Below are positions 38,858-61,384 of a stretch of 64,000 nt of DNA, one piece after another. A program made the translations under genes and the position numbers. Numbering within the stretch: the stretch's first letter is position 1; each line of letters opens with the position of its first letter. The DNA is taken from NCBI GenBank assembly GCA_963809485.1, contig CAWEJX010000017.1:96001-160000 (forward strand), written 5' to 3'. The notes below the pieces were generated by a model. It saw nothing but the letters and a program-made list of their open reading frames with translations. It was not told where the DNA came from and searched no databases. The stretch comes from an uncultured Acidobacteriota bacterium. GTDB lineage: Bacteria; Acidobacteriota; UBA6911.

Positions 38858-40098
38858 ATGAATACGAGGCAGTTAATCCATAATTCTCCAGCCGCGCGCT
38901 CCAGCCTGCTGCTGAACAGGGATTATGCATTGGCGCTGCTGTCCTATTTCTTTGCCTTCTTCAGCATCGCGGTATTCTACCTTTTTCCCCTGTATCTCGA
39001 TCGCTTCCACCCGTCCAAAGCCCGCGTCGGCCTGATCATGGGCATCCACAGCGTCGCCGCCATTATGGTCCGTCCCCTTTTCGGCCGTTTCCTGGACCGG
39101 CGGGGCGGCAGGAAAGTGGCCGTTCTAGGTCTCCTCCTGATGATTATTACAATGCCCGGGTTTCACCTGGTCCAGAGCGCAGGCGTCCTGGCTGCCGTGC
39201 TTCGCGCGCTGAACGGCATCGGCTGGGGAATCGCGACCACGGCGATATGGGCGCTCTGCTCGGACCTTGCGCCCCCCGAGCGTATGGCCCACTCCCTTGG
39301 AATCATAGGCGTCGCGGGAATTGTTTCAGGCGCCATTGGCCCGACAGCCGCGGAAGAGGTCTTCCGCCGCTTTAACTTCGGAGCGGTCATGGACCTGGGT
39401 TCGGTTATGGCGGCCGCTGCTCTGCTATGCGTGGTTGCGATAAAAAAAATACCCGTCCGAGCGAATCCGGAGCAAGATCCGAATCCGGCGCGGATTTTAT
39501 GAAGCATTCGATCGCCGTTCTGCTGGTGATCGCATCCATGCCGGTCATTCACGGCGCGGTCCGGGGCACAGTCCTCAACTTCATCGCGCTCTTTGGAACC
39601 AGCGTGGGCTTCAGTCGCGTGAGCCCCTTCTTTATGGCATTCTCAGCCGCAGCCATACTGACCAGGCTGGGAATAGGCGACCTTTCGGACAGGTATGGCC
39701 GCAAAAGTGTCATCTTCCCTTCCGGAGTGCTTATCTGCCTCAACCTATTCTGGATTGCCGGAATCCGCTCTTACCCGCCGTTCGTGATCAGCGGCTTTGT
39801 GGCCGGCTTCGGACAGGGACTGCTGTTTCCTGCGCTTAGTGCTTATCTGATCGACTTTCTGGGGCGAAGCAACAAAGGCCTGGCGCTCGGCCTTTACATG
39901 TCTCTTTTTGATGTCGGCATGGGATTGGGGTCCCCGCTTTTCGGATGGGTGTCGGACCTAACCGGGTATCGCTGGATGTACGCCCTGGCGAGTTGCCTTC
40001 TGCTGGCTTCAACTATAGTATTCACCCTCAAAGCTCCCCGATTGGCCGAATCGGTCCCCGCCAACGCCAGTAATCCCCGCAGCATCATGCCTGAATAG
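38858..40098 (+). CDS. MFS transporter, split or frameshifted into halves 38858..39502 and 39499..40098
   Basis: Motif A in both halves (GRFLDRRGGR; GDLSDRYGRK); frame change in the central loop. Confidence 0.85.
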
Positions 40099-40180: not shown

Positions 40181-40849
40181 TCAGACCCGATGCTCCTTGC
40201 GCACCACTTTGCGCGCTCCGGAATACCAGGCCGTACTCCAATCCTTGGGTGGGATGATATCTTCGAGACGGTCAAGCTGGCCGATATTCTTCAGCCTGAT
40301 ATAAATGAGCTGCCAGGCGCATGGCCGTTCGGGATCCACTTCACACTGGCTCTCCAGCGAACCGCCGCAGGGCCCGTTCAGCAGTCGCTTGGCGCAGCGC
40401 GTCACCGGGCAAATCCCGCCGAATTGCGCCAGCATGCATTCACCGCAACCCAGGCACTTCTCCGTCCAGACCGCCTGCTCTTCCAGCACCCCCAGGAATT
40501 GAGTATTGAGGCCGGCATAAACCGGCTTATTCGGAAACCTCTCGGCAATCGCCTGCACTCCCGCACCACAGCCAAAAGAGACAATCGCTTCAACCCCGGA
40601 CGCCGGTTCCGCCAGATCCTTGAGAAATTCATTGTCGCACTGGCGCTCTATGGTGACCTGGGTGATTTCGAGCGTGTTACGTTCCAGCTTGCGAGCCATG
40701 CGAATGGCGTAAGAGGCAATGCCGACTTCCCGTTCGCCGCCCGCAAGGCAGACCGTCACACAGGTCCCGCAGCCTGCAAACAGGACTTTTTTATGTCCGG
40801 ATATAAGGTTCTTTACTTCGGTAATCGACTTGGGTGAAGCGACAATCAT
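40181..40849 (-). CDS. metV: MetV (methylene-THF reductase C-terminal/zinc-FeS subunit)
   Basis: GCGTCVTVC, ERQCD, GCGAGVQ, CLGCGEC, CPVTRCAKRLLNGPCGG and CEVDPERPCAW motifs. Confidence 0.9.
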   Translation of the reverse strand: MIVASPKSITEVKNLISGHKKVLFAGCGTCVTVCLAGGEREVGIASYAIRMARKLERNTLEITQVTIERQCDNEFLKDLAEPASGVEAIVSFGCGAGVQAIAERFPNKPVYAGLNTQFLGVLEEQAVWTEKCLGCGECMLAQFGGICPVTRCAKRLLNGPCGGSLESQCEVDPERPCAWQLIYIRLKNIGQLDRLEDIIPPKDWSTAWYSGARKVVRKEHRV

Positions 40850-41346
40850 ACCTTCCCTGCACTTTCCGTCTGTTCCAGCGCCCGGATGGGGCTGGGACCC
40901 AGAGCCTTAACGGTTTCCACTATTCCCCTCACATGCTGCACAAATGCCGGCGCCATGGCGTCGGAGAGATTCACCATCTGAAGCCGGCTGCCCCCAATGC
41001 CGATCTCATCAAGAATGGACCGGATCCGGTCGATACGCTTGCGGGCCCGAAGATTTCCTTCCACATAATGGCAGCCTCCCTCCAGGCACCCGACCACGAG
41101 TACTCCGTCCACACCCTTTTCAAATGCATCCAGGATATGCTCCATCTCGAGTTTCCCCGTGCATGGCGTGTGGATGATACGGACTCCGGCAGGATATTGC
41201 ATGCGCCGGGATCCCGCCAGATCCGCCGCAGCGAAGGCACAATAATTGCAGCAGAATGCGATGATTCGCGGAGCGCCGCAACGCCAGGCAGACGGGGCTG
41301 CCCGATCCTGCATTTTCGCCGACTGTCCAGTGTTCGCTGCAATCAT
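40846..41346 (-). CDS. mvhD: MvhD/FlpD [2Fe-2S] subunit
   Basis: FCCNYCAFAAADLAG, PCTGK and GCLEGGCHY..GN motifs. Confidence 0.93.
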   Translation of the reverse strand: MIAANTGQSAKMQDRAAPSAWRCGAPRIIAFCCNYCAFAAADLAGSRRMQYPAGVRIIHTPCTGKLEMEHILDAFEKGVDGVLVVGCLEGGCHYVEGNLRARKRIDRIRSILDEIGIGGSRLQMVNLSDAMAPAFVQHVRGIVETVKALGPSPIRALEQTESAGKV

Positions 41347-41348
41347 GC

Positions 41349-44300
41349 CTACCCTCCGCCAACCAGCATTTCTTCAAGCATCGCGATCATAGCGCCGGCC
41401 TCCTGGTGCCTCAGGGTAATGGATTTGGCCGGACAGGAAGCGGCGCAACTCCCGCATCCCATGCACTTGCCGCCCTGAATCTCCGATTTCCCAAGCCTGT
41501 TTATCATTGGAGCGCCGTAAGGGCACACCTTTAGGCAGGTGGTGCAGGCGACGCATTGAGCCGGATTCACAAAGGCGACCTGGCCGGCAATTTCGAGCTG
41601 AGCTTTTGAAAGAATCCTGGCCGCGCGTCCTGCGGCTGCCAGAGCCTGCGCGATTGTCTCATCGATGAACTGCGGCGAGTGAGCCATGCCGCACAGGAAT
41701 TCCCCCTCGTTGACAAGATCGACGGGGCGAAGCCTGGAATGAGCTTCCATGAAAAAGCCGTCAGCCGTTAACCCGCTGCGCAGCAGGCCCGCAATCGCCG
41801 CGTTATCCAAAGCCGGAGAGATTCCGGTCGAAAGCAAAAGGAGGTCAGGATGAAAAACCTCGTCATCGAGGCCGTCGGCGTCCCGGACACTCACGACAAG
41901 ACGGCCGTCCTCTTCCTCTATCTTCGGATCCTTGCCGTCCATGGAACGAACGAAGCGAATTCCCTCTTCCAGCGCCTGCCGGAAATACGCTTCGCGGAAT
42001 CCCTGGGTGCGCATATCCCGGCCGAGGATATGGATCCTGGCTTGCGGCAAACGGCGCCTGATTGCGAGGGCATTCTTAATCGCTTCCGCGCAACAGACAC
42101 GGCTGCAATACGGATTTTCTTCATTACGGCTTTCCACGCACTGGATCATGACGACCGTCGGATCCGGTTTGCCGATCAGCTCAGCAGGCAGGTTTCCCTC
42201 CGCCAGAGAGGCCTCAAACTCGGTCTGCGTGCGCACACGGGGGTTTCGGCCGTTCAAATATCGCTGGGTGGGTCGTTCCATCGCCCCGGTCGCAACCAGG
42301 ACCGCTCCGTGGCTCACGGGCTGCTCCCGGCCGGCCATATTCAGAACGCTTTTGAAATTTCCCACCTGCCCCGAGATTCCGGTCAGAGTCGTGTTCAGAT
42401 AAACAGTGATCTCCGGATGGGATAGGACTTTTGATATCAGCCGATGCAGGTGCCCCTGGACGTCATCGCCTTCCAGCGTAGAGCACCTGTTGCGCAATTG
42501 CCCGCCCAGAGCCGCCGTTTTTTCCGCCAGGTGTACTTTATATCCCTGACCGGCAATGTTCAGCGCAGCGGTCATTCCCGCAAGGCCTCCTCCCAGAATC
42601 AGTGCCGAGGCGGTTACGGGGATTTCGCCATTTCTCAGCGCCTTCAAATGCCTCGCCCGAGCGACAGCCATCGACACCAGATCCACCGCTTTGGCGGTCG
42701 CCGCGGCGGGGTCGTCCTGGTGGACCCAGGAGCATTGGTCGCGGATGTTCGTCATGGCAAGGAGATAGGGATTGAGGCCGTTTTCAAGCAGCGTTTCCTG
42801 GAAGAGGATCTCATGCGTGCGCGACCAGCACGAAGCCACAACCAGGCGGTTCAGCCCGTGTTGTTTGATCACTTCCCTTATGTGCCGCTGACTGTCGTCC
42901 GAGCATGCATAGAGGCCGGCCTCGGCGTGCTTCACACCCGGCAGGGCAGCGGCCCTGGCCGCCACGCGATCCACATCGACAATGGAATCGATGTTGTGCC
43001 CGCAGCGGCAGACGAAAACGCCTATGCGGGGCGGCTCGTCCGTGACATCCCGCTCCCAGGGATACTCATGGCGCCGAGTCATGGTTCCGCGGACGGTTGT
43101 GAGCAGGTCCATGGCGCAAGCGGCCGCCGCAGACGCCTGGGTCACGGATCCGGAAATTTCCTTGGGTTCCTGAAACGCGCCGGCCGTGTAAACTCCGGGT
43201 TGATTGGTTGTGACCGGCGACAGCCTCTCCGTCCGTGCAAAGCCGGACTCGTTGAGATCGATCCCCAGCCGGCGAGCCATTTCTTTCACTTTGGCCGGGA
43301 CCTGCAGCCCTGAGCTGAGCACTACCAGATCGAATTCCTGCCGTTGCTCGGCGCCATCCGGGTCCTGGAAAACGACCTGCAGACCTTTGCCGTCGGGCGA
43401 TTCCTCAACCCGGGAAGGGACGGCATGGATATAGCGAATGCCGCACTCGACGCGAGCCCGGTGGAGATAGCTGTCGAACTCTTTGCCGGAGACCCGCGTG
43501 TCCATGCAAAAGATCGCCGCCTCTATCCCCTGGTTTTGCTCCAGTGCGCCCATGGCTTCTTTGGATGCGCTCATGCAGCAGATCGATGAACAATAGGATT
43601 TGCCGCGCCTCGGATTCCGGCTTCCTACGCACTGTATGAAGGCGATGGATTTCACCACTCTGCCGTCCGACGGACGTTTGATTTGCCCGCCGGTCGGCCC
43701 GCCGGCCGAAAGCAGGCGCTCGAACTGCAGATTGGTCACCACGTCCGGATAGCGGCCGTGACCGAACTCCGCCCAGAGAGAGGCCGGAAACTCCTCGATG
43801 CCCGGAGCGGCGATAATGCTGCCGACCTCGATGTCGATTTCCGTCTGCTGTTGATCGTGGCACACCGCTTGGGCTGAGCATGCCTGGACGCACTGCATGC
43901 ATTCGCTGCAGCGGGCGCACGAAAGGCACCGTTTGGCTTCAGAGACTGCTTCGTCCGGGCTGTACCCCAGGTTGATTTCATCCCAATCCTCCAGCCTGGC
44001 GTCCGCACTTCGTTGCGGCATCCTGACGCGCTCTCTCCTGGGACCATCGGGTCCGGGATCGGGGACAGGCTTTGCCTTGGGAGCATTCACCGCGGCAGCT
44101 GAGCTCTGAAGTTTCAAAGTGCGGGGGACATGAGCAGTCTTTAGAATATACGATTCGATCGATGCGGCGGCTTTGTGGCCTTGAGCAATCGCTTCCGCAA
44201 CAGACGCGGAACCCAGCACAACGCCGCCTCCGGCAAAAATGCCTTCGATGTTTGTGGCAAGAGTGTCCTCATCCGCGCGGATTCGCCCCCCGGGACGCAG

Positions 44301-45858
44301 TTCAAATCCGAACCGGGCGGCATCGACTCCCAGGCCCGCGGCCACAATCACCGTATCCGCAGGTAGAGAAGTGATTTTGGCATCATCGAATATGGGGTCG
44401 AAGCGCCTGTACTCCTTGTCGAAAACGCTGGTGCAGGCACGAAAAATCACGCCCGTAACCTTGCCTTCGGAGTGCTCGAACCTGGTAGGGCCAAGGCCGT
44501 TATGGAAGACTACGCCTTCATCCAGAGCATCGGATACTTCCCGGGAATGGGCCTGCATTTCGGCGCGGCTTTCGAGACAGGCCAGGTGCACCGAGCGGAC
44601 GCCGGGTAGCCGAAGGGCGCAACGCGCCGCGTCGATCGCCATCTCCGAACTGCCGATCACCAGCACCCGGGCGCCAAGGACCGGCTTTTTCCCGTCGTTG
44701 ACATCGCTAAGGAAGCTCAGTCCTTCCCGGACCCCCAAAGCATCCTCTCCCGGAACGCCGAGCTTCCGGTTCAACCAGGCTCCGGTGGCAACAAACACAG
44801 CATCGAATGCTTCAGCCGCACCGGATTCATGCCCCGATTGCAGTTCGGGTTTAAGCAGATCCTTCGGCCTGGCGATATGGGTACCGGCGCGGACTTCCAC
44901 TCCCAAATCGAGTATTTGTTTGATTTCGAAATCCAGAACAGGCCTGGGCAGCCTGTAGGCCGGGATGCCGTAACGGAGCATCCCGCCGAGCTGCAGTCTG
45001 AGCATCGAATAAAGTCACTCCGAAGCCTTTCATGGCAAGATCGGCGGCGGCCGTCAGGCCGGCCGCGCCGCTCCCCATCACGGCAATCCGGGCGTGATGC
45101 CGGAGAGGCGGTGCCGTCCATGCAGCATAATCCGCAGGATTCGAATAAACATGGTCGGCGACAAACCTTTCGAGATCACGGATCGAAAGAGCCTCGTCGA
45201 TTCCATTCCGGTTGCACCCATCCTGACAGGGATGCGGACACAGCCGTCCGCACACAGCCGGAAGGGGGCAGCGCTGGCGAATAAGCTCATAGGAATCCCC
45301 GAACCGGCCCGCAGCAGCGAGAGCCAGGGCGCCCGGGACATTCACGCCCGCAGGGCAGGAACTCCTGCAGGGCGCAGGCAGGGCGGACTTCGTTATACTG
45401 AAGGCACTGGGGATAGACTGCGGGTAAGGACGGCAAACCGCCTTGCGCGTGCTCAGTCCGCAATCATGTTCATTGGGAAGATGGACCGGGCAGACCTTCT
45501 CGCAGTCGCCGCAGGCGTCGCATTTCTTAATATCGATATAGCGCGGATTCTGACGGATCTTGACCCGGAAATTTCCAGGCCCGCCGGAGACGCTTTGTAC
45601 GTCGCCAAGCGTGATGATTTCGATGTTTTTATTCCGGGCGCATTCCACCAGCTTGGGGGAAAGAATGCACATGGCGCAATCGCCGGCCGGGAAAATCCTG
45701 TCAAGCTGGGCCATTTTCCCGCCGATGGCAGGGGAGGAATCCAGCAGATAGACTTTGAAACCTCCGTCCGCCAGGTCCAGCGATGCCTGAATGCCGCTGA
45801 TTCCCGCACCGCAAACCAGCACCGCTCCGGTTTTTTCAATTTCCTGATTCCATGCCAT
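41349..45858 (-). CDS. hdrA: Large HdrA-like (HdrL-type) flavoprotein with embedded GltD-like module; one +1 frameshift near 44995-45005
   Basis: GAGISGIQASLDLA..IGGKMAQLD..DCAMC; GltD-like CPAG..VCGRLCPHPC..LGGMLRYGIP; IQCVGSR..YCSSICC; second module CRCGHNI..NIRDQCSWVH..IQCVESR..YCSRVCC; C-terminal 2x[4Fe-4S]. Joins track ORFs 44851..45858 and 41349..45005. Confidence 0.9.
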
Positions 45859-45907
45859 GAAGCCGCCTGATGATTCAAAATAAGAAATTGCTTATAACGC
45901 GCACCGG

Positions 45908-48511
45908 TCAGTTCCTGGATCCGGCCAGCACCGAAAGCTTGACCGCGCCGACCTTGCGGTAGACTTCGTGCGGAGCCCGAACCTGTCCATCCACCATCAA
46001 TAAATCTTCCAGCCGGATGCCGAAAAGGCGTTCGTTTTCCACCAGGTAAGGACGGATCAGCTGCCAATCCTTGTCGGAAAGCCCGGAAAGGACGCCGCCG
46101 TTCAGCTGTCGTTCGACCACCTGTTGATGAGGATCGCGGATGTAGATGGCTCCGCCGCTGGCAAGAGAAAATAGATTGCTGCCCGGATAGGGCACCGCGA
46201 GAGGAATGACCCTGCCGTTTCTGTCGAACCCGATGCCGTTTAGGATGATGAATCCGCCGCCGTTCAGAGGATCTCCGGCCATGAAGGATTCCGCCAGAAA
46301 ATCCAGACAGGTGCCGTTAATGACAACCCGCGGGCGGCCGACGGCATTGATCAACGGACGGCCCGCCGCGTTGCCGAGGACAAAAACGTCGCCGCCCTTG
46401 GCGCCGTACATGAACGTCTGGCCGACATCGCCATACACGACCAGCTTGCCGCTGCGGGCGATCTGGGCGACCTGGTCCTGCGCGTTGCCATGGATGTGGA
46501 TATGCAAGCCGTCCATGCCGCTTGCCGCATAATCGCCAACAGAGCCATAAAGGTCGATGCGCACGCCGTTTGTGTCCGGGCCCAGGCCTGCGCCGTGAAA
46601 GCGCTGCCCGCGCAGGCGGTAAACAACAAAGCGTGTCCAGCCCGCCTGGTAGGCAGTGCGAAGCAGAACGGCATCGCAATTGTCTCCCTCGGGGGGGAAA
46701 TCCTCCGCATCAATGATCAGAAGCTCTTCGCCTGCACGAGGCGACGACAGTTGGTTCCGGGTACCCCAGTTCACACGGCGCCAGAAGCGGCTGGCCGGTT
46801 CGCCGAACAGCGGCGCCCGGTCCAGAAGATCTTCGATCCTGTCATCGACAACGCGTATCACCGTCGCCCGGCGCTTGTCGCCGGTGTCGAAATGCCGGTC
46901 GCGAAGCATCGTCAGCAACTCAAGGGCGGTAGCGCGGGATTGGGCATTGTCGGCGCCCTCGACCACCAGGCGGCAGAACTGCTCGAGGTCGCCGGCGGAC
47001 CAGGAAGGCAGGCTGAGCGCAAAGCGGAAAAGGTTCTCCCTATCCCCTTTCTGCAGCCATTGGTTCACCAGCTCTCTCAATGCATCCGGCGCTTTGCCCG
47101 GATGGGCGGCCGGTGTCATGTCACACCGGATCGTTCCTGCATCCAGGATGACAGGGCGGCCGAACTTGTCGGCGCAGGAAAGCTTCTTGCGGCCATTTTG
47201 TTCTGTATCCACGGAAAAGATGAAGGCGCCGCCATCCGTGCTCGATCCTCCGCGGGCATTCCAGTATTTATCTGCGATGGGGCAGAAGCGCGGGTCTTCA
47301 CGGGCCAGGCTTCGCAGCGTGGCGTCGATGGCCTGTTTTTCGGAACAGATTAAACCGATCTGCACGTCCCCGCTTTCGGAAAGCGCAAATACCTGGGGAC
47401 GGAGCATGGCCGTATCTGTGATGCCCATCAATTGAACTCTCTTCAGATCCGGCTGGCTGCGGGCGATGATGAAAAACCAGGGCCCGTCCGGAGATGCGTG
47501 CATATGAGTCGCCTGGATTTGCCGGTAGACCGACTGCTTCTCCGGCGGCAACTGGTCGAAGTCCAGTTCGGTCGTCGGAGCCAGCGCTTCGATGATGTAC
47601 TCCAGGGGATACTTGTAGACCCTGTCCCACAGGTCGAACAGCTGAACCGATACTTCGGTATCGGTGAGGAACTGCTGGCGGATGTTGCGCTGGCGCAGAT
47701 ATTCGCAAACCGAATGATAATTGGCGAAATCGCCATTGTGCACCAGGGCTTCGTTCAATCCCGCGAAAGGGTGCGCACCGCCCGGATGCCATACGCGTCC
47801 CTTGGTGGGATAGCGCTGATGAGCAATCCAGGCATGGGCTTTGAAATCCTGAAGCTGGTAATACTCGACGTTTTGTTCGGCATAGCCGACCATTTTGTAA
47901 ATCAACAAATCCCTGCCGTGAGAAAGCACAAAAGCCCGCTTTTCCCCCAGGGACGCATAATACCGGTCATTCAGCCGGTAGGAATTCCGCCAGACAAACT
48001 CGTCCTCCAGGTCCCGGGGCGATAAGAGTTCGAGGCCCGTCTCGGCGGCAAAGGCATTCAATACACCGGGCTTGACTCGGACGACATAGCGGTGGACGTC
48101 CGGCGGGCGGACTTCCAGTCCTGGGATATCCCGATAATCGTCAATGTGGCTTTGCCTCTTGGATAGGGCCACCTCGAAGTGAGGGAGGACAAACTCGCGT
48201 TCGAGTTCCGCGTGGCATTCAGGGTCCAGCAGAGCGATCTGAAGCAGGTAGTGATGATCCAGCACGTCGCGGGAGACGCCCATCTGCTCGGGGGTCAGGC
48301 CGACAGCGGCAATGCCGCCGCCCTTGCCATTGCCGCGGTTCTGCATTTGGATCGACGGTTCATAAATGAACCGTCCTGCCAGCGGCACGGTGCAGGCGAA
48401 TCCCGTTACGCCGCAGCCTCCTTCTTCGGCAGTATCGGCGGAAAATGCAGATTCCTTGCCGGAGTATATCTGCGACCGGGTTGCCAGCAATTGTTCGATA
48501 ATATCTTTCAC
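45908..48511 (-). CDS. Glutamate-synthase-like subunit: class II glutamine amidotransferase fused to GXGXG beta-helix
   Basis: EEGG-CGVTG (Ntn Cys after a propeptide), NRGNG, HQRYPT, AHPF, HNGD, TDTE and DGP motifs; C-terminal GXGXG repeats. Confidence 0.9.
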   Translation of the reverse strand: MKDIIEQLLATRSQIYSGKESAFSADTAEEGGCGVTGFACTVPLAGRFIYEPSIQMQNRGNGKGGGIAAVGLTPEQMGVSRDVLDHHYLLQIALLDPECHAELEREFVLPHFEVALSKRQSHIDDYRDIPGLEVRPPDVHRYVVRVKPGVLNAFAAETGLELLSPRDLEDEFVWRNSYRLNDRYYASLGEKRAFVLSHGRDLLIYKMVGYAEQNVEYYQLQDFKAHAWIAHQRYPTKGRVWHPGGAHPFAGLNEALVHNGDFANYHSVCEYLRQRNIRQQFLTDTEVSVQLFDLWDRVYKYPLEYIIEALAPTTELDFDQLPPEKQSVYRQIQATHMHASPDGPWFFIIARSQPDLKRVQLMGITDTAMLRPQVFALSESGDVQIGLICSEKQAIDATLRSLAREDPRFCPIADKYWNARGGSSTDGGAFIFSVDTEQNGRKKLSCADKFGRPVILDAGTIRCDMTPAAHPGKAPDALRELVNQWLQKGDRENLFRFALSLPSWSAGDLEQFCRLVVEGADNAQSRATALELLTMLRDRHFDTGDKRRATVIRVVDDRIEDLLDRAPLFGEPASRFWRRVNWGTRNQLSSPRAGEELLIIDAEDFPPEGDNCDAVLLRTAYQAGWTRFVVYRLRGQRFHGAGLGPDTNGVRIDLYGSVGDYAASGMDGLHIHIHGNAQDQVAQIARSGKLVVYGDVGQTFMYGAKGGDVFVLGNAAGRPLINAVGRPRVVINGTCLDFLAESFMAGDPLNGGGFIILNGIGFDRNGRVIPLAVPYPGSNLFSLASGGAIYIRDPHQQVVERQLNGGVLSGLSDKDWQLIRPYLVENERLFGIRLEDLLMVDGQVRAPHEVYRKVGAVKLSVLAGSRN

Positions 48512-48517
48512 TCGTAT

Positions 48518-50134
48518 TTATCCTTCTTTGGCTTCCGGCCCGTCCTCGAGGTAGCAGAGTACATCGCTGCGGCCGCGAAGACTGCGAATCGACGGCATGC
48601 CCAGTTTCCTCAAAACAGCAACCATTTGCTCATGCCAGGCATTCTGGAGGTTGATAAGTCTCTGCGCGGCCCACTCCGGGCTCATCAATGTCACAAGTTC
48701 GGGATCCGTGGAGGCAATTCCGCGCGGGCAACCCCGGCCGCTTTCACAGGAGGCGCATCGCACACAGCCCAGTGCCACCATTTCAGCCGTGCCTATGACC
48801 ACGCCGTCCGCCCCCAGGGCGATGGCTTTGAGCGCGTCATAGGCTGTCCGGATGCCGCCGGATGCAATCAGCGTAATCTTCTCCCGGATGCCTTCGGCGG
48901 AGAGGAATTTGTGCACTTTGGGAATGGCATATTCGATCGGCATCGCGATATTTTTTTTGGCGATGTCGGGCGCCGCGCCCGTGCCGCCGTAGCTTCCATC
49001 CAGGTGAATAATGTGCGCCCCCGCGTAATAGCTGCCCACGGCCACCATATCCACATCCACAGGAGTGGAAACCTTGACGCTTACGAGGCATCGGGGATTG
49101 ACTTCTTTGATCCAGTCGAGATGCTTTTTGTGGTCCTCCACGCTGTAAACGCTGTGGAAGGGGAAGGGGCTGAAAAGCGCATTTCCGGGGACCGCGCCCC
49201 GCATGCGGGCGACAGCAGGGGTGTTCTTGTCGCCCAGCAGATGACCTCCGAGGCCGGGTTTGGCGCCCTGCGCATATTTGAACTCCACGATTCTCACGCG
49301 CTGGATGGTATCCTCGCGCACGCCGAAAAGGCCTGTGGCGACCTGCGTGATCACGTGGTTGTCATAGGGCTTGAGACGGTCCGGATACCCTCCCTCGCCC
49401 GTGCAGGTAAAGCTGTTCCAGGCAGCGGCAGCGCGAGCTTTGGCCAGAATAGTATGGATGCTCACGGACCCGAAACTCATCCCTCCGCCGTATACCGGGA
49501 TGTCGATATGTACCTGCGGCCGACCATCCTCCCGACGGTTCAGATCGAGGCCGGTGTCTATCTCAACAGAAGCCGCCTCCTTCAAGCCCTTTCTTCTTTC
49601 CGCAGTTTCGGAAACGACCGGACCGCCGAATCCCGCGATCTCAAATTTAAAGCGGAGCCTGTCAAAGCCGCCCCCTGATTCGCCGCAGCGATATTTCAGG
49701 TGAGGCAGCGGGGTATGGCCGGTTTCTGCCTCATACCATGTCGATAAAATCAGGTCGCTCGGCCATCGGTAATCGCCGAGACAACGGGTATTGGGATTGA
49801 GCCCGAGGGTCAGGGCTTTTTGCGGGCACCGGGCGACGCAATAATTTTCCGTTTCCGCACACGCCGGACCGATGCACCGATTGTCCCTGGGGCGCAGCAT
49901 GAGAGCATATCCTTCCGGCTTTGTGTGCACACCATACCGGCAGACCTCGGCGCACAGGCCGCAGTCAATGCAATCGGCCGAACGGCTTATTTTGTATTTG
50001 CCCAAAGGATTGCGATAACGGTCGGGCGCCGGACATATTTCGCGCCGGACCGTCTCCTGGGACCAATCCTCGGAGCCATCGGTCTCCTGCCGGATTTCGT
50101 CCTGAATGTTGAGATCGGCGATTGTTGTCTTCAT
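48518..50134 (-). CDS. Glutamate synthase FMN-binding subunit with N-terminal ferredoxin
   Basis: CIDCGLCAEVC; GMSFGS, TGEGG, QVATGLFG, KYAQGAKPGLGGHL, DGSYGGTGAA, SGGIR and CVRCASC..CPRGI motifs. Confidence 0.92.
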   Translation of the reverse strand: MKTTIADLNIQDEIRQETDGSEDWSQETVRREICPAPDRYRNPLGKYKISRSADCIDCGLCAEVCRYGVHTKPEGYALMLRPRDNRCIGPACAETENYCVARCPQKALTLGLNPNTRCLGDYRWPSDLILSTWYEAETGHTPLPHLKYRCGESGGGFDRLRFKFEIAGFGGPVVSETAERRKGLKEAASVEIDTGLDLNRREDGRPQVHIDIPVYGGGMSFGSVSIHTILAKARAAAAWNSFTCTGEGGYPDRLKPYDNHVITQVATGLFGVREDTIQRVRIVEFKYAQGAKPGLGGHLLGDKNTPAVARMRGAVPGNALFSPFPFHSVYSVEDHKKHLDWIKEVNPRCLVSVKVSTPVDVDMVAVGSYYAGAHIIHLDGSYGGTGAAPDIAKKNIAMPIEYAIPKVHKFLSAEGIREKITLIASGGIRTAYDALKAIALGADGVVIGTAEMVALGCVRCASCESGRGCPRGIASTDPELVTLMSPEWAAQRLINLQNAWHEQMVAVLRKLGMPSIRSLRGRSDVLCYLEDGPEAKEG

Positions 50135-50278
50135 GCAAGGACCTTGGTCGTATCAGAAAAAAGCCGGTCTGAAATATCCGAAGTGCCCGCCGGCGGTTCC
50201 GGGCAAGACGTAGCGGCAAAAACGGCTCCCTCAAAACATGCTGTGTTTCCCATGGTCGTTCCCGACGGACTATTCATG

Positions 50279-51715
50279 TCACTGCTCCATGGCCACGCGG
50301 GCCAAATCCCCGAAAGCTTCTTTCTCCATGTCTTCCCGGAAAATGGCGCGTCCCACTTCGCCGCGCAGGCGCCGGACTTCACGGATGCCCATGGCGCCCA
50401 GCACCTCAATCAGCTGGCTGTTCCAGGCGCCCATAAGGTTGCTCATGCGCCGGGCTGCATATTCGACATCACAGGAAGCGCTTTGCACCGGGCAGAGGCC
50501 GTGCATCCGGGTTTCAGGAGGCGTCTCTTCCGTGCTCATGCCATGGGTGTCGCGGCAGACACGGCAGCCGAGGGCGACCAGCAGAGCCGTATCCACAGCC
50601 ACAAGGTCGGCGCCGCAGATGATGGCTTTGGCCATATGCTCGGCCAGATCGATTCCTCCGGAAACGATCAATGTAATTTCGTCGCGGATTCCCGCATCTA
50701 CCAGGCGGCCGTGAATCTCGCGCATGGCATCTTTGATATGCCGGCCATTGACCGATTGCTCACACCCGTGCCGGCTCGCGCAGAGATGAAAAACCTTGAA
50801 TCCCTGTTGTGACAATTCGAGGATGCGGCCGGCGGTTGAGGACCGAAGCACCGTGCGGACCGAAAGAATGGCTTCCGGCGCCCCGGGCCGAATCAGGTCT
50901 GCCATTTTCGGCAAATCCGGGCAGTCCTGCAGTTGGACCATTTTGCCGATCCGGCCGCAAAGCGCCGGCAAACTCCACAGGTTGTTTTGGTCAAAAATGG
51001 GCACTACCGCCGGCATCAGATCCGGCGGCAGGCTGACGGCTTCCTGGGCGAGCACTGTCGCTACGGTGCCCAAATTTGCCGCTGCCCGCGACCGGGCATG
51101 CGCCAGCGTGACCGGGGGCACGGGCCAGGCGGGGATATCCAGAATGGCCGGGAGCGGAAGCTCGATCAGGCGCGCCGGCTGCGTGAGCATCCTGCCTTCC
51201 GGAGTGAAACTCAGACGCATTGGCTTGGATCCGACATCCACCGAGGTTGAGATGTATTCGCGCCCATGGATGCCGTCGCGTGTGGGGCGCACGATTTCGG
51301 ACATATCCGTCCATATGGAATCGAAACCGGGTCCATGGAACCTGCCCCGGTACCCTGCGCCCGAAACCGGTATCTTGCCGGACTCTGCCTGATCCCAGGT
51401 GCTGAGGATCATTTCCGGCCTGTAGTAATCGTCGCCCAATTCCAGGAATTCGGGATTGAGAGAAAGGTTCAGCAGCCCCTTGGTACAGCTTTGAACGCAG
51501 GAAAGACAGGCTTTGCATTCATACAAGGGCTGCAAAACCGCAAACGGGTCGCGGTTGTGGGCGGATTCATGCCCGTAAACGTCGTAACAGCAGCGGGGCT
51601 TGACGCAATTGGTGCAGTGCGAGCAATCCTCACGCCAGTCTACGCTGCCGAATTTGCCAATCCTGTGGAAACGTCCCGGTGTCAAAACCGTGTGTATGTG
51701 ATAGCGATCAGGCAC
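50279..51715 (-). CDS. Second, degenerate glutamate-synthase FMN-barrel-like subunit with ferredoxin
   Basis: CSHCTNC and CKACLSCVQSC; SGGI..HMAKAIICGAD and CRVC; lacks MSFG, GEGG and QGAKPG. Confidence 0.8.
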   Translation of the reverse strand: MPDRYHIHTVLTPGRFHRIGKFGSVDWREDCSHCTNCVKPRCCYDVYGHESAHNRDPFAVLQPLYECKACLSCVQSCTKGLLNLSLNPEFLELGDDYYRPEMILSTWDQAESGKIPVSGAGYRGRFHGPGFDSIWTDMSEIVRPTRDGIHGREYISTSVDVGSKPMRLSFTPEGRMLTQPARLIELPLPAILDIPAWPVPPVTLAHARSRAAANLGTVATVLAQEAVSLPPDLMPAVVPIFDQNNLWSLPALCGRIGKMVQLQDCPDLPKMADLIRPGAPEAILSVRTVLRSSTAGRILELSQQGFKVFHLCASRHGCEQSVNGRHIKDAMREIHGRLVDAGIRDEITLIVSGGIDLAEHMAKAIICGADLVAVDTALLVALGCRVCRDTHGMSTEETPPETRMHGLCPVQSASCDVEYAARRMSNLMGAWNSQLIEVLGAMGIREVRRLRGEVGRAIFREDMEKEAFGDLARVAMEQ

Positions 51716-51766
51716 CTCGATCTCCTCTTTGGGGCGGCCGCCCGCCCCCAGCTGCGGTTCAGAATT

Positions 51767-52675
51767 TCAATCCCGTAAGCCCGCCTGCTCGATGACAGCG
51801 CCAGCCAAATGCTCACAACCGTTACTGAGAACGTGAATGCCACGGATGCCGGGCATACCTTTAAGCCTTGCCGCGATTTCGGCGGCCACGGTCACCCCTT
51901 CCTTTTCTGGGTCTGCAGCTTTTTGGATTCGCTCGACAACCTCGTCTCCAATAGGCCCATAGGTCCGGCGCTTCTGAAGCACCTTTGCCTTCTCCGGGCT
52001 GGTAAGAGGCAATACGCTCGCAATAATGGCCGTACGCTTGTCAAAACCCGCAGACCTCACCACGTCCATCCATTGAGTGAATGCCTCAAAATCGAAGACC
52101 GCCTGGGTCAGCAGAAAATCCGCTCCCACTGAAATTTTTTTGGTCAGGCGCAGCACGTTCAGTTCCATCGGCCTCAAATAGGGATGGGCGATTGCTCCTA
52201 TTTGAAGGTCCAGGCCGGGTTCAGACGGGTTCCGATAGTATCCCGCCTCCTGGAGTGCCATTCTTTTCAGCGCCTTCGTGAACTGGATCGAGTCAAAATC
52301 GTTGGCAGCGGCGGCTTGAGGGCAAATGCCGAGAGACTGATGATTCCCGCTCATGCAGAGGATGCCGGATATGCCCAGGGCCGACGCGCCCATTGCGTCG
52401 CTCAATAGGGCAATACGGTTGCGGTCGCGGGTAGCCATCGACAGGATGACACCGGAATGGCCTGCCCTGCCCAGCGCGACGGCAGCAGAAAAAGCCGAGC
52501 CGCGAATCCCATCGGGGTTATCCGCAACCACGACCGCATCCAGATTGCGCGGCAACGAATCTGAAATGCCTTGGACCGCATCGGCATCGGCGCCCGCTGG
52601 GGGCAGGTATCCCGCGGTCACAAGAAAACGCGTGGAGGAAAGAGCCTGGGAAAATCCATTACAATTGCCGGTCAT
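51767..52675 (-). CDS. metF: MetF-like (methylene-THF reductase fold) flavoprotein with altered catalytic residues
   Basis: VADNP, TRDRNRIAL, GADFLLTQAVFD and GIHV motifs; catalytic Glu and Asp positions appear as Gly (VTAGYLPP) and Asn (SGNHQ). Confidence 0.85.
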   Translation of the reverse strand: MTGNCNGFSQALSSTRFLVTAGYLPPAGADADAVQGISDSLPRNLDAVVVADNPDGIRGSAFSAAVALGRAGHSGVILSMATRDRNRIALLSDAMGASALGISGILCMSGNHQSLGICPQAAAANDFDSIQFTKALKRMALQEAGYYRNPSEPGLDLQIGAIAHPYLRPMELNVLRLTKKISVGADFLLTQAVFDFEAFTQWMDVVRSAGFDKRTAIIASVLPLTSPEKAKVLQKRRTYGPIGDEVVERIQKAADPEKEGVTVAAEIAARLKGMPGIRGIHVLSNGCEHLAGAVIEQAGLRD

Positions 52676-52678
52676 CGG

Positions 52679-53233
52679 TTAACTCGCACCTTTCCCGGGA
52701 GAGCTTCCGGCCGGATTTTCAGAGGGCGACAACCGCAGCGGGCTCGAGCGGCTGCAATGAAACGTCTTCATGACCTGGTCGCGGATTTCGGTCAGTTGGG
52801 CATCCAATCTTTCCGCCGATGATTCGGCCGAATCGGCTTTCGCATCGCCGGCCGGAAAGGCTACGGTTGCCCCGGCGCGGCCCGGAAGATGAAAAAGCAT
52901 CAGACGTTCAGCCCCAAGACCGATCTCCATGAGGATCGACCGGATAAAATCGACGCGGCGGTCGCAGCGTTTGCTGCCCTCGAGAAATGTGCAATGCTCT
53001 TCCCGGCAGCCGACAACAGACACAATGCTAGTGCCGGATTCAAAGGCCTTCAGAACATGCTCGGGCTGCAACCGCCCGGAGCATGGAACAAGTATCTGCT
53101 GAACCTCGACGGGCCAATGGAAATCCAGGGCCGCGGACCGGGTCGCAATACCCGAGGCCGGTTGCCGGCCTGGCTGTGCGCAGTTAGCGCACAGAAACAG
53201 TGTAATTTCAGGAGAGTTCGGGGAATGTTCCAC
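52679..53233 (-). CDS. mvhD: Second MvhD-like [2Fe-2S] subunit
   Basis: GTG start after AGGAGG; FLCANC, VPCSGR, GCREEHC..GS and IGLGAERL motifs. Confidence 0.85.
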   Translation of the reverse strand: MEHSPNSPEITLFLCANCAQPGRQPASGIATRSAALDFHWPVEVQQILVPCSGRLQPEHVLKAFESGTSIVSVVGCREEHCTFLEGSKRCDRRVDFIRSILMEIGLGAERLMLFHLPGRAGATVAFPAGDAKADSAESSAERLDAQLTEIRDQVMKTFHCSRSSPLRLSPSENPAGSSPGKGAS

Positions 53234-53420
53234 CAGTCCTCCTTGCTTTCTTGCTCAAAAAGCCGGGATCGGGGTTGCCGCCAGACTCATCGCGGGCAGC
53301 CCGATGATCCTTGAAATCTTCGCACCGGATAATCCTCAACTGGGCGCTTCGCCTCAAAGTGCACGTTGAATCGTGCATGCAGGTTTCACACAGGCCATGA
53401 TATTTTGTCGTTTCGGCCAT
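53208..53420 (-). CDS. Small Cys-rich protein (GLCxxCxxxxxC...CEDF)
   Basis: ATG at 53420 after AAGGA and just downstream of a sigma-54 promoter; four-Cys motif. Confidence 0.6.
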   Translation of the reverse strand: MAETTKYHGLCETCMHDSTCTLRRSAQLRIIRCEDFKDHRAARDESGGNPDPGFLSKKARRTGGTFPELS

Positions 53421-53448
53421 AAAGAATCCTTTCGGAAGCGATAACTCT

Positions 53449-53464
53449 AGCAAGCGCCATGCCA
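53449..53464 (-). promoter_or_regulatory. Sigma-54 (-24/-12) promoter
   Basis: Minus-strand TGGCATGGCGCTTGCT fits TGGCAC-N5-TTGCW; 28 bp upstream of the first ATG; adjacent enhancer-binding protein gene. Confidence 0.85.
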
Positions 53465-53566: not shown

Positions 53567-53604
53567 TGGTATTAATTATTTACCATGGAACGCTATTTAT
53601 ACCA
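53567..53604. promoter_or_regulatory. Candidate tandem upstream activator sites TGGWA-N9-TACCA
   Basis: tggta-ttaattatt-tacca immediately followed by tggaa-cgctattta-tacca, about 100-140 bp upstream of the -24 box. Confidence 0.55.
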
Positions 53605-53733: not shown

Positions 53734-55542
53734 TCAGGATAGCCCATATTTATCGAGTTTTTTACGCAGGGTAACGCGGCTTATGGAAAGCATTCTGGCC
53801 AGTTCGCGCTGACTGAATCGACCAGAATCAAGAAAGTGACGCAGGAGTGTTTCCTCCACAGTGTCCAGGAGCAAATCCCGCAGGCCAGAAGGATTCCTTG
53901 AGGAAGCCAGAACGCGCAGAACAGCTTTGCGGAGGTCGGCCTGAGCATCGGTTTCCTGCATGGGGCTTGGATCCGCACCGGGATTCAAACGGCTGTCCAA
54001 AATCTCGTCGGGAAGCAGTTCGAGTGAGACGGTATTGTCCGGGCTCATGACCACGGCCCGCTCGATGCAGTTTTCCAGCTCGCGCACATTTCCGGGCCAG
54101 GAATAGGCCACCAGGGTGTCCAGCACATCCCGGGGGACGATCGTGACTTTGCGGTTCGCTTCGCGGTTGTATTTTTCCAGGAAATGGTCCACGAGGAGGG
54201 GAATATCCTCGCGCCGGTCTCTGAGGGGCGGCAGATGTATGGGGATGACGTTCAGCCTGTAGAGAAGGTCCTGGCGGAAACGGCCGGCGCGTATTTCCGA
54301 TCGCAGGTCCCGGCCGGTCGCAGCCACGATGCGGACGTCGACTGTCACCGTACGGCTTGATCCCACCGGCTCGAATTGTTTTTCCTGGAGCACGCGCAGA
54401 AGCTTGACCTGAAGGCGCGGGCTCATTTCACTGACTTCATCCAGGAAAAGCGTGCCCCCGTCGGCCGCCCGGAATCTTCCTTCGTAATCCCGTACGGCTC
54501 CCGTAAATGCGCCTCTGACGTGGCCGAACAGTTCGGTTTCGAGCAAGGTTTCGGGGAGCGCCCCGCAATTCACTTTGACCAGCGGGCCGCCGGAGCGATC
54601 GCTGTTGTAATGGACAACATTTGCGATCAGCTCTTTTCCCGTGCCGGTTTCGCCCGTAATCAGCACGGATGAACGCGATTGGGCCGCGGTGGCGGCCAAA
54701 CCCAACAGCCGCCGGATAGCGGCGCTGCCGCCGACGATGCTGTCGACCCTGTAGCTGCGCCTTAATTCCTCGCCGCGGCGCGTCAGGCGGTCGACACCCC
54801 GGGCGCTGCCGGTATCCCCATCCTGCGCCGCCGATCCCTCGTCCAGGTCCAGGGGTTGCGCGACGCCGATGGCGGCGTTCCGGCCCGCGGATTTGTGCAC
54901 CGTCAATGATCGTTGGCCGTTGGACAGAGAGACTTCCATTACGACCTGCGTTATGTGTCTCACTTTCGCCAGGAAAGCTTCGCTGTGAGCATCTGTCTCC
55001 ACAAGCCAGTATGCCAGGGTCGAAAGATCGTACAGACGCGGGCAGAGGTGTCCAAAAAGCCTCACGACCCTGTTTTCATCGCCCCAGAGGTCCAGCATTC
55101 CGGTGAGCGAATCAAAGACGTAGTTGGCCGACTGGCCCCCGCGCGTGCCGACCTCGACAATGGCTTTTTCCAAACGGGATGGATCCGAGGGGTCGGCGAT
55201 GTGAACGGGAGCATGCACACTATTGCGGGCGGGATCATCGAAAAATTTCAGAAAGACCTCATCGGAATTCCCTTTCCCCGATGAGAAACAGTCGATCAAA
55301 AAAAAGCGTCCCGGGGTCATGAGTCCGGCATACTTCGCCGCGATCGTTTGGGGGGATCGATTGAAGCTGACGTATACAACCGGGATTTCGTCGTGTTCGC
55401 AGGCAAGTACAAAGCTGGAGATAAAATGGTCGCCGGCCACTCCCGAGTCGATTTCCCAGACAAGGTTATCACCGGCCATCACTCCGCCGATGGCCCGGTC
55501 CACTTCGGTAATGCCCGTGGTAGGCCCGTACTTGAATGCCAT
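53734..55542 (-). CDS. Sigma-54-dependent transcriptional activator with N-terminal KaiC/RAD55-like domain
   Basis: GETGTGKE, ELFGHVRGAFTGA, TLFLDEV and WPGNVRELEN motifs; C-terminal HTH; N-terminus TTGITEVDRAIGG..YVSF..YVFDSL. Confidence 0.92.
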   Translation of the reverse strand: MAFKYGPTTGITEVDRAIGGVMAGDNLVWEIDSGVAGDHFISSFVLACEHDEIPVVYVSFNRSPQTIAAKYAGLMTPGRFFLIDCFSSGKGNSDEVFLKFFDDPARNSVHAPVHIADPSDPSRLEKAIVEVGTRGGQSANYVFDSLTGMLDLWGDENRVVRLFGHLCPRLYDLSTLAYWLVETDAHSEAFLAKVRHITQVVMEVSLSNGQRSLTVHKSAGRNAAIGVAQPLDLDEGSAAQDGDTGSARGVDRLTRRGEELRRSYRVDSIVGGSAAIRRLLGLAATAAQSRSSVLITGETGTGKELIANVVHYNSDRSGGPLVKVNCGALPETLLETELFGHVRGAFTGAVRDYEGRFRAADGGTLFLDEVSEMSPRLQVKLLRVLQEKQFEPVGSSRTVTVDVRIVAATGRDLRSEIRAGRFRQDLLYRLNVIPIHLPPLRDRREDIPLLVDHFLEKYNREANRKVTIVPRDVLDTLVAYSWPGNVRELENCIERAVVMSPDNTVSLELLPDEILDSRLNPGADPSPMQETDAQADLRKAVLRVLASSRNPSGLRDLLLDTVEETLLRHFLDSGRFSQRELARMLSISRVTLRKKLDKYGLS

Positions 55543-60203: not shown

Positions 60204-60615
60204 CGTCGCAGCTCCCTTCTTCAGGTCTATGGACATGAATTTCAAAGAAAACGGTCTCAGTATACAGGATAGCCGACACTGTGATCCCCTGATTTGTTGG
60301 AATTCTAAGGACCAGAGACTTGGTAAGAAGTCAACAATTTACGGCAGAGCCGCCGAAGCAGGTAAGCGATATGAAATCCGGTCTAACGGAAATTCCGATT
60401 CATTTTGCTGCTTGATTTTGAGGGTTTGCTGTATCATGCCTGAAGCAGTATCCGGAAGTTGGAGCTATTTTGCATACGTGTTTATAGAAATGATTCTTAT
60501 TGCACAGGTACACCACGGCCCCACGGTGAGTCCGCAGCCATCCGACGATACATCTGTGGAGCGGCCGCCGGACGGCATTGCTACCCGTCAGGCCGACAAT
60601 TAAGGAGGGCGCATC

Positions 60616-61338: not shown

Positions 61339-61384
61339 CATTGCCGATCTCCAAAGGGCAAACGGGAAAAGAAGAAATTGACGG

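Follow-up and report, generated by a model that had tools for sequence, protein, structure and literature searches.

A stretch of 64,000 nucleotides from an uncultured soil or wetland Acidobacteriota bacterium of the UBA6911 lineage (GCA_963809485.1, contig CAWEJX010000017.1, positions 96,001 to 160,000), referred to below as the window, carries an operon in which the genes of a probable split glutamate synthase are interleaved with homologues of HdrA, MvhD, MetF and MetV. Glutamate synthase is the main entry of ammonium into biomass, and its textbook electron donors are NAD(P)H, via GltD, or ferredoxin. All genes of the operon lie on the minus strand, between the promoter at 53464 and the stop codon of metV at 40181, and are separated by intergenic distances from -26 (an overlap) to 144 nt. 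An earlier note on this DNA had described co-directional, tightly packed genes behind a single -24/-12 promoter; this layout was confirmed, as were the gene order and coordinates, for which Pfam gives the Cys-rich peptide, MvhD1, MetF-like, GltBdeg, GltBfmn, GATase-GXGXG, HdrL, MvhD2 and MetV, in that order. The promoter and the nine genes, all on the minus strand, are as follows.

53449 to 53464, minus strand: sigma-54 -24/-12 promoter, TGGCATGGCGCTTGCT, fitting TGGCAY-N5-TTGCW
53208 to 53420, minus strand: Cys-rich peptide, 70 aa, with the motif GLCETC-x5-C-x12-CE(D/E)F
52679 to 53233, minus strand: MvhD1, MvhD/FlpD-type [2Fe-2S] adaptor, 184 aa (FlpD, E 2.5e-23)
51767 to 52675, minus strand: MetF-like protein with the fold of methylenetetrahydrofolate reductase (MTHFR), 302 aa (MTHFR, E 6e-17)
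50279 to 51715, minus strand: GltBdeg, ferredoxin-fused degenerate paralogue of the flavin mononucleotide (FMN) barrel, 478 aa (Glu_synthase, E 1.2e-13)
48518 to 50134, minus strand: GltBfmn, FMN/synthase subunit with an N-terminal 2x[4Fe-4S] ferredoxin domain, 538 aa (Glu_synthase, E 3.8e-90; Fer4_9)
45908 to 48511, minus strand: fusion of GATase_6 (class II, N-terminal nucleophile, Ntn) with a GXGXG beta-helix, 867 aa (Pfam GATase_6 and GXGXG)
41349 to 45858, minus strand: HdrL, a megafusion of HdrA'(N), a GltD-like module, HdrA'(C) and HdrA'', about 1500 aa (Pfam and NCBIfam domains)
40846 to 41346, minus strand: MvhD2, MvhD/FlpD [2Fe-2S] adaptor, 166 aa (FlpD, E 5.7e-46)
40181 to 40849, minus strand: MetV, Cys-rich small subunit of MetFV-type methylene-tetrahydrofolate (THF) reductases, 222 aa (DUF5981, MTHFR C-terminal, E 4.5e-37)

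The comparisons reported here draw on the best-scoring matches of two homologue searches (160 in all, the best 80 of each) rather than on a random sample, in a collection that holds one genome per species; the second search was seeded from a Syntrophobacteraceae homologue, and 96 well-flanked loci were available after removal of six duplicates. Relatives of the GATase-GXGXG fusion were found in at least 569 stretches of this collection. Among the best 80 matches of each of the two scans, all carriers were records of metagenome-assembled genomes (MAGs) or 'uncultured' entries, with no link to a published strain.

The three central genes, hereafter the Glt trio, look like a working glutamate synthase (GltS), because GltBfmn aligns to the synthase domain of the GltS alpha subunit (2vdc_A, 1ea0_A; E 2e-50) with the motifs KxAQGAKPGxGG, SPxPxHxxYSxED and GGTGAxP in register with the solved enzymes, and because the Ntn nucleophile of the amidotransferase, Cys33 in GGCGVTGF, is conserved (78 of 80 homologues, the remaining two being gapped). 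The amidotransferase motifs HQRYPTKG and HNGDFANY are invariant or almost so in the same 80 homologues, and the GXGXG helix occupies residues 636-804 of the fusion (Pfam, E 1.8e-12). A poorly conserved leader of 32 residues precedes Cys33, and its removal would presumably be required to expose the nucleophile. Two sets of cysteines in the ferredoxin domain of GltBfmn (55/58/61/65 and 87/92/99/103) are invariant in 67 of 67 sequences, as are C457, C460 and C469, while C463 is present in 58 of 67; the latter four lie at the position of the Fe-S cluster loop beside the FMN of GltS. Thus the trio contains an Ntn glutaminase, an FMN/synthase barrel with its motifs, Fe-S cysteines by the FMN and a GXGXG helix; what it lacks of GltS is the NAD(P)H-binding beta subunit, as no free gltD is present in the operon. 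On these sequence features the trio is very probably a glutamate synthase.

The second barrel subunit, GltBdeg, matches the Glu_synthase model only at positions 256-368, its last third, has neither the AQGAKPG nor the GGTGA motif of the active subunit, and carries 12 invariant Cys in three groups along with a ferredoxin-like 2x[4Fe-4S] domain. Alignment with hhalign relates it to the synthase domain of the canonical GltB encoded in the same genome (probability 95.9%), and the best structural match of its model (predicted local distance difference test, pLDDT, 72.7) is GltS alpha 788-1157 (Z 20.8, root-mean-square deviation 3.3 Å, 281 aligned residues). Profile alignment and predicted fold indicate that GltBdeg is a full-size, catalytically dead copy of the FMN barrel. 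A resemblance to the central domain of GltS (423-780) was also considered and was ruled out by the hhalign result and by the fold match to the FMN/synthase domain; position alone would suggest a central-domain-like role for the subunit. The most conserved stretch of GltBdeg, residues 116-157 (PVSGAGYRG...TDMSEIVRPTRDGIHGREYIS), is invariant over 51 sequences from many phyla, and its pLDDT in the model of the monomer is below 50; one possibility is an element of an interface or tunnel that becomes ordered only within a complex. Natural fusions of GltBdeg with GltBfmn, each a single open reading frame (ORF) of 980-993 aa, are found in a Planctomycetaceae MAG (L036:7054-9996) and a Chloroflexi MAG (L047:6924-9905).

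Compared with GltBD of Azospirillum brasilense (1ea0, 2vdc, 6s6s) and the ferredoxin-dependent GltS of Synechocystis (1ofd), the trio comprises the same four pieces, namely an Ntn glutaminase, an FMN barrel with an Fe-S cluster, a GXGXG helix and a second barrel-like element, and the operon shares with the former the GltD-homologous flavin adenine dinucleotide (FAD)/Fe-S module, which here lies inside HdrL. It differs in that the pieces are encoded separately, with GATase and GXGXG joined in one fusion, free GltD is absent, both barrels bear an N-terminal 2x[4Fe-4S] domain, the second barrel is a full-size dead FMN copy, and the FMN-adjacent cluster loop has four Cys in most members. The split glutamate synthases of archaea, with which the trio was compared by published description, are not known to have been characterized as to donor or activity. 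In Archaea, individual GltS domains are encoded by separate genes, according to the available passages of a review (Vanoni review, PMC8097209); the likeness extends to the separate domain genes and the ferredoxin-fused FMN subunit, whereas the GATase-GXGXG fusion, the obligatory dead paralogue and the Mvh/Met/Hdr partners were not found described for the 'archaeal-type' enzyme.

The genomic neighbourhood of the trio is one of nitrogen assimilation. When the ORFs flanking the first 80 loci were clustered without supervision, two recurrent neighbours beyond the operon emerged, an ammonium transporter in 14 loci and a glutamine synthetase in 9, and amt, PII (glnK) or glnA is present in 33 of the 96 loci. 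One locus (L033) has amt-glnK-amt-glnK immediately upstream on the same strand, and many trio-only loci are arranged trio-amt-glnK-glnA. In a scan of ten other genomes with the Glu_synthase model, no canonical long GltB frame was found in G002, G005, G007, G008, G009 and G010, and the trio is the only strong Glu_synthase match in these 6 of 10, an absence that is provisional since all are MAGs except G002, whose locus comes from a record titled as a complete chromosome. This context bears on the alternative raised in the earlier note, an anaerobic amine or C1 pathway resembling MgsABC. In such a pathway, the product of the amidotransferase-like domain would be some amine and not ammonia, and the methyl group would fall to MetF/MetV. 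GATase-like, GXGXG and FMN-barrel domain types do also compose MgsABC, and a folate enzyme homologue lies within the operon. However, all five adjoining glutamine synthetases that were tested pass the NCBIfam cut-off for type I GlnA and fail that for type III, Amt and PII are the other recurrent neighbours, and the neighbour clustering yielded no sarcosine-oxidase-like, gamma-glutamylmethylamide or N-methylglutamate dehydrogenase genes; by genomic context, as distinct from sequence comparison, no association with a type III glutamine synthetase-like enzyme or an N-methylglutamate dehydrogenase was seen. The trio being the sole glutamate synthase candidate in six of the ten genomes, and the MetF-like protein being catalytically crippled, also argue against such a pathway, which is hardly credible here. 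As judged from gene content, the neighbourhood fits a glutamate synthase that partners glutamine synthetase and does not fit an amine pathway of the MgsABC type.

The remaining proteins of the operon have close counterparts elsewhere in the same genome. A complete HdrC-HdrB-HdrL-MvhD-MetV-MetF cluster, with a 1499-aa HdrL and an intact MetF, lies approximately 25 kb from the operon; the assembly contains it in two near-identical copies, one at the end of a contig (C17:165526-170394) and one at the start of another (C3:420-8749). The accessory module seems to have been recruited by duplication of a methylene-THF reductase set of the Moorella type, because of its identity to this paralogous cluster (HdrL 44%, MvhD2 46%, MetV 50%, MetF-like 37%). 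Further MetV/MetF pairs occur on contigs C7 and C21, of which the C21 copy appears frameshifted. The MetFV-HdrABC-MvhD system of Moorella thermoacetica (Mock et al., 2014, quoted in passages of PMC5736913 and PMC6085437) likewise combines MetF, MetV, MvhD and HdrA homologues in one operon; the operon described here differs in lacking HdrB and HdrC, in a MetF without Glu28 and Asp120, in having two MvhD, in an HdrA that is the HdrL megafusion, and in the insertion of three glutamate synthase genes in its middle. Of the parts that define the Moorella type, MetV, MvhD and HdrA are therefore present, and a competent MetF and HdrB/HdrC are not. The absence of hdrB and hdrC had been claimed in the earlier note and is true of the operon: no ORF with a CCG domain (HdrB) falls within 40181-53464, the nearest being at C17:166093, outside the window, although both genes occur in other loci and in the paralogous cluster.

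The Fe-S adaptors of the module are well preserved. C15, C51, C76 and C81 of MvhD1 are invariant across 26 sequences, C33, C62, C87 and C92 of MvhD2 are invariant in 53 of 53, and 13 Cys of MetV are kept in 54-55 of 55. Relative to the clade member L001, the ratio of nonsynonymous to synonymous substitution rates (dN/dS) is 0.05 for MetV, 0.16 for the MetF-like protein and 0.05-0.29 across 11 ORFs (the adjacent sigma-54 activator, the eight intact operon genes and both HdrL fragments), values that point to purifying selection on all operon genes. A pseudogene reading of the MetF-like protein, GltBdeg and HdrL was considered separately and is ruled out by their dN/dS of 0.16-0.29 against L001.

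The MetF-like protein nevertheless appears to have left folate chemistry. Its Gly22 and Asn111 occupy the columns of Glu28 and Asp120 of E. coli MTHFR, the folate catalytic residues, which the genome's remaining three MetF paralogues retain; in the available passages of PMC11094777, the E. coli Glu28Gln enzyme is reported to keep approximately 0.01% of activity, and the Asp120Asn enzyme 0.3% of kcat with Km raised more than 40-fold. Because both catalytic residues are lost, the protein would be a flavin or structural adaptor and not a methylene-THF reductase. Across the loci, which are not phylogenetically independent, Asp120 is retained in 30 of 34 without HdrL (14 further loci being gapped at this column) and in just 8 of 27 with HdrL, where N, A, Y, H or R take its place by lineage. 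This pattern suggests that folate chemistry was relaxed repeatedly once HdrL was present, and the loss of MetF residues alongside HdrL would fit a relay role for MetF. It also bears on the idea of a C1-nitrogen coupling enzyme, in which MetF would oxidize methyl-THF or reduce methylene-THF and exchange electrons with the glutamate synthase site. Where MetF stands beside the trio without HdrL it keeps Glu28, Asp120 and Gln183 (27 'ED' loci; the Asp count is that given above), and it then comes with MetV and MvhD (33 of the 96 loci, with MetV and MetF only in one more); on the other hand, three of the 96 loci have MvhD and MetV without MetF, and the window's protein bears Gly and Asn where E28Q and D120N leave the E. 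coli enzyme nearly inactive (PMC11094777, same passages). A folate-coupled enzyme, quite unlikely as an account of the operon, is on sequence grounds plausible for the forms with intact MetF and not for the window.

HdrL is the largest of the accessory proteins. Pfam places Fer4_20 and Pyr_redox_2 between its HdrA-type parts, and the NCBIfam layout of an intact orthologue runs from an N-terminal HdrA piece through a GltD-like block at 166-655 (PRK12771, 514 bits) and the HdrA remainder at 627-903 to a second full HdrA at 923-1483. HdrA modules and an inserted GltD-like module in one polypeptide, followed by mvhD2, are what characterizes HdrL of sulfate reducers (Strittmatter et al., 2009, PMC2702500; Sedano-Nunez et al., 2018, PMC5947623, in the passages on this protein), a large soluble HdrA that is also discussed for Syntrophobacter fumaroxidans (PMC5947623). 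In the same passages of the two papers, that HdrL is placed with dsr, fdh or hdrABC genes and NADH is its proposed donor (PMC2702500, PMC5947623), and a link to a glutamate synthase large subunit is not made there; a further difference is the fingerprint of the window's clade, GSSEMAID instead of GGGDVAMD. The statement that the operon has no separate gltD is therefore correct as to a free gene, yet a GltD/NfnB-like Fer4_20 plus Pyr_redox_2 module sits inside HdrL. For the same reason, the proposal that HdrA, MvhD, MetV and (pseudo)MetF simply replace GltD does not stand, as a GltD-homologous domain, with an altered fingerprint, is embedded in HdrL.

The Glt-like and Met/Mvh/Hdr genes do co-occur elsewhere, and in the same interleaved order, which by record titles is kept across nine phyla (Acidobacteriota, Actinomycetota, Myxococcota, Planctomycetota, Verrucomicrobiota, Armatimonadota, Desulfobacterota, Chloroflexota and Nitrospirota). 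MetF and/or MetV is present in 51 of the 53 well-flanked loci of the first search and MvhD in 52; of the first 80 related loci, 31 have hdrC and hdrB, placed after the GATase gene and before hdrL. The arrangements in the 53 loci were distributed as follows.

MvhD-MetF-trio-HdrC-HdrB-HdrL-MvhD-MetV: 21 loci
The window's form, without HdrCB: 6 loci
MvhD-MetV-MetF-trio: 13 loci
MvhD-trio-MetV-MetF: 5 loci
MvhD-MetF-trio-MetV: 3 loci
MvhD-trio: 2 loci
Other orders, one locus each: 3 loci

The trio is the constant core, and the Mvh/Met/Hdr proteins form a graded series of add-ons. The clade of the window (the window, L001, L003, L004 and L035) appears in sequence as a trimmed form, from which HdrBC is gone, the MetF-like residues are lost and the HdrL fingerprint is altered, with the Cys-rich first gene in addition.

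A physical connection between the two groups of proteins was sought by structure prediction of three chains, with GltBdeg as partner against the MetF-like protein plus MvhD1 and a separate alignment for each chain. The score was 0.36 (0.35-0.37 between runs) against 0.01 for the best of three controls, it fell to 0.01 when the MetF-like protein was swapped for an unrelated protein, and the runs share at least 54% of contacts with a partner pLDDT of at least 76. The pass mark had been calibrated on 80 solved complexes, of which 58 reached it, and 110 mismatched pairs, of which two did; passing scores of 0.60 or below came from only seven of the solved complexes and from both passing mismatches. 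The prediction hints that GltBdeg may be the docking subunit for MetF-like/MvhD. Overall, the evidence leaves about an even chance for the reading that we favour, in which the operon would encode a nitrogen-regulated split glutamate synthase with the accessory proteins joined to it in one complex as a dedicated electron-input module.

Several observations weigh against this reading. The predicted contact falls in a score class in which, unless there is a strong prior, wrong predictions outnumber right ones. The window's genome also encodes a canonical 1533-aa GltB with a neighbouring GltD-like match (by tblastn only), so the operon is not essential for glutamate synthesis there; G001, G003, G004 and G006 similarly carry both canonical GltB and the trio. 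The second dinucleotide, or NAD(P)H, fingerprint of HdrL, GGG(D/N/S)VAxD in 23 of 23 sequences from HdrCB-bearing loci, reads GSSEMAID in the window where most relatives have GGGDVAMD, and the five clade members have GSSEMAID, GSSELAID, GSSDLALD, GGSALAID and GSTDLAVD; NAD(P)H is doubtful as donor in this clade because the fingerprint is altered. Moreover, hdrL itself is broken in the window: its two parts, an ORF of 335 aa at 45858-44851 and one of 1218 aa at 45005-41349, overlap and are read in different frames. The '~1500-aa HdrA' of the earlier note is thus right for the orthologues, which are single ORFs of approximately 1480-1500 aa (1483 aa in L011, and in frame in L001 and L003), and must be amended here to two ORFs and to an HdrL-type HdrA-GltD-HdrA fusion. 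The break falls inside the GltD-like Rossmann module, between the FAD fingerprint and the GG-x-L-x-YGIP motif. Contigs of two public sequencing runs (X1 and X2, relatives of ~95-96% identity) bridge the site and both have one base fewer at 45001, whereas the near-identical contigs of a further run (X4) end before 45001 and give no bridging. The two fragments have dN/dS of 0.16 and 0.18 against L001. Most likely the frameshift is an assembly error or a very recent lesion. The neighbouring gene for a major facilitator superfamily (MFS) transporter (38858-40098, plus strand) is also split, into ORFs 38858-39502 and 39427-40098 (214 and 223 aa, both MFS_1), and is a single 412-aa ORF in L001; this second frameshift within 5 kb of the hdrL break points to indel errors in the assembly.

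The frequency with which the trio stands by itself is a further point of this kind. Over the 96 loci, the additions to the trio were as follows, the first three rows being those that tell against an obligatory module.

None (trio alone): 27 loci
MvhD: 3 loci
MvhD+MetV: 3 loci
MetV+MetF: 1 locus
MvhD+MetV+MetF: 33 loci
MvhD+MetV+MetF+HdrL: 29 loci

Because the trio is alone in 27 of the 96 loci, the accessory proteins are optional and may belong to a separate activity. The claim of one complex is therefore only partly upheld: the weak predicted contact of GltBdeg with MetF-like/MvhD speaks for it, and the add-ons are not obligatory. Under the corresponding alternative, two enzymes would share one operon: a trio that depends on ferredoxin and needs no partner, and a distinct soluble oxidoreductase of the Hdr type, for example one that regenerates reduced ferredoxin, the two being only co-regulated. 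The trio-only loci, often followed by amt-glnK-glnA, would be expected from it, both barrel subunits bear their own ferredoxin-like 2x[4Fe-4S] domains, and a free-standing HdrCB-HdrL-MvhD-MetVF cluster exists in the same genome. However, accessory genes on both sides of the trio in an order fixed across phyla would be unusual for mere co-regulation, the accessory set would have no evident substrate because the catalytic residues of the MetF-like protein are lost, and the contact between GltBdeg and the MetF-like protein, although weak, is predicted well above its best control. We regard this alternative, the main rival of the favoured reading, as doubtful, though worth keeping in view.

The favoured reading amounts to a second glutamate synthase, split and rich in Fe-S clusters, that would be controlled by sigma-54 and its enhancer-binding protein (EBP) and would have its own electron-input module. 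For the core, the steps are strongly supported: GATase-GXGXG would hydrolyse glutamine at the Ntn Cys33 after removal of the leader, the ammonia would be handed to the ferredoxin-fused GltBfmn, 2-oxoglutarate would be aminated there and the imine reduced to glutamate, and the dead GltBdeg, with up to three Fe-S clusters, would serve as structural and electron-wire subunit. The input module, consisting of the MetF-like protein, MetV, two MvhD and HdrL, all paralogues of the genome's Moorella-type HdrCB-HdrL-MvhD-MetVF set, would dock on GltBdeg and pass electrons through the Fe-S clusters to the FMN. The trimmed module of the window's clade would work without HdrBC, with the MetF-like protein as flavin or structural adaptor and with an altered NAD(P)H fingerprint in the GltD-like part. 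Ferredoxin or an HdrA-type flavin couple is the most likely donor in this clade, and NAD(P)H a less likely one.

A sub-case of the favoured reading, and so not independent of it, is a bifurcating or confurcating glutamate synthase, in which the exergonic reduction of 2-iminoglutarate would drive uphill reduction of ferredoxin by a mid-potential donor at the HdrA-type flavin of HdrL. HdrL holds two HdrA-type FAD modules and a GltD/NfnB-type module, HdrA and Nfn are two of the four known bifurcating families (PMC8097209, in the passages available), the parent system of Moorella, MetFV-HdrABC-MvhD, is presented as a bifurcating enzyme (PMC5736913 and PMC6085437, in passages), and HdrCB is kept in 21 of 53 loci. 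However, no sequence signature distinguishes bifurcating from non-bifurcating HdrA, the clade without HdrBC and with the altered NAD(P)H fingerprint has no obvious mid-potential donor, and the trio occurs without any Hdr part in many genomes. Bifurcation is for these reasons improbable as the mode of the enzyme, and within it the window's clade would be a trimmed derivative with a swapped electron donor, a corollary that we consider similarly improbable.

A description of the split trio with Mvh/MetV/MetF/HdrL partners was not found in the papers covered by full-text searches, supplementary tables lying outside them. The split form, present in at least 569 stretches, is apparently the sole glutamate synthase candidate in 6 of 10 genomes. 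Should the partners be an electron-input module, the donor of the split 'archaeal-type' enzymes would become testable, MvhD and MetV would be portable Fe-S adaptors whose use extends beyond hydrogenases and folate reductases, and nitrogen assimilation might be tied to flavin-based energy conservation. Should bifurcation be true, the operon would represent a new class of flavin-based bifurcating enzyme and an energy-conserving ammonium assimilation in anaerobes of many phyla. The graded architectures (trio; with MvhD; with MetV; with MetF; with HdrCB-HdrL; with trimmed HdrL) offer a natural series of constructs.

Regulation of the operon would depend on sigma-54, as suggested by a correctly spaced -24 GG/-12 GC promoter and a cognate EBP gene. 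TGGCAY-N5-TTGCW occurs twice in the window against 0.14 expected, and one of 100 shuffles gave two matches. Within the window's clade the GG and GC elements do not vary (8 of 8 upstream regions aligned), and 9 of 62 loci have a match with at most one mismatch ahead of the first gene, where approximately 0.006 per region would be expected. Inside the operon, neither promoter-like sites (four, with 5.8 in shuffles) nor terminator-like sites (10, with 14 in shuffles) are in excess. Two further features lie upstream.

53567 to 53604, minus strand: inverted repeat TGGTAT-N26-ATACCA, with core bases invariant in 8 of 8 clade upstream regions
53734 to 55542, minus strand: sigma-54 EBP, 602 aa (Sigma54_activat, E 6.1e-68; AAA_lid_14; HTH_8)

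The repeat lies approximately 100-140 nt upstream in the clade operons (8 of 8 aligned) and is likely to be the upstream activating sequence of the EBP, on sequence conservation. The EBP consists of an unassigned N-terminal domain, an AAA+ sigma-54 interaction domain and a Fis-type helix-turn-helix, and its orthologues stand immediately upstream of the operon in L001-L004, L009 and L035. Residues 1-255 (54778-55542) have no sequence match in Pfam or the PDB; they are strongly conserved (DCFxxGKG, F(D/E)SLTGM and HxCPxLY) and carry no Walker A motif. Three Desulfobacterota loci (L065, L067 and L074) have homologues of this domain, with 33-35% identity, in the vicinity of the Glt cluster. Its AlphaFold model is poor (pLDDT 60), and Foldseek returned weak rows of the KaiC-CI/RecA superfamily (E 0.008-0.03, template modelling score 0.32-0.38). 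The domain may be a dedicated sensor for the Glt operon.

Besides the operon promoter, the sigma-54 consensus is matched exactly by TGGCATCCCACTTGCA at 61138-61153 on the minus strand, which lies in the 5′ part of ORF 60400-61341, for which no Pfam family was found. At the far end of the window, a flavoprotein subunit of the CO-dehydrogenase/xanthine-dehydrogenase type (61560-62510, plus strand; FAD_binding_5 and CO_deh_flav_C) has no visible link to the operon.

The first gene of the operon, for the Cys-rich peptide, gave no match in Pfam or NCBIfam. Homologues occur in eight clade relatives, with the four Cys kept in all, and the motif C-x2-C-x5-C-x12-C ends in CE(E/D)(F/Y). Two copies of the motif are present in L003, L004, L006, L012 and L035, and one, the first, in the window and L001; the dN/dS of the peptide against L001 is 0.16 over 70 codons.

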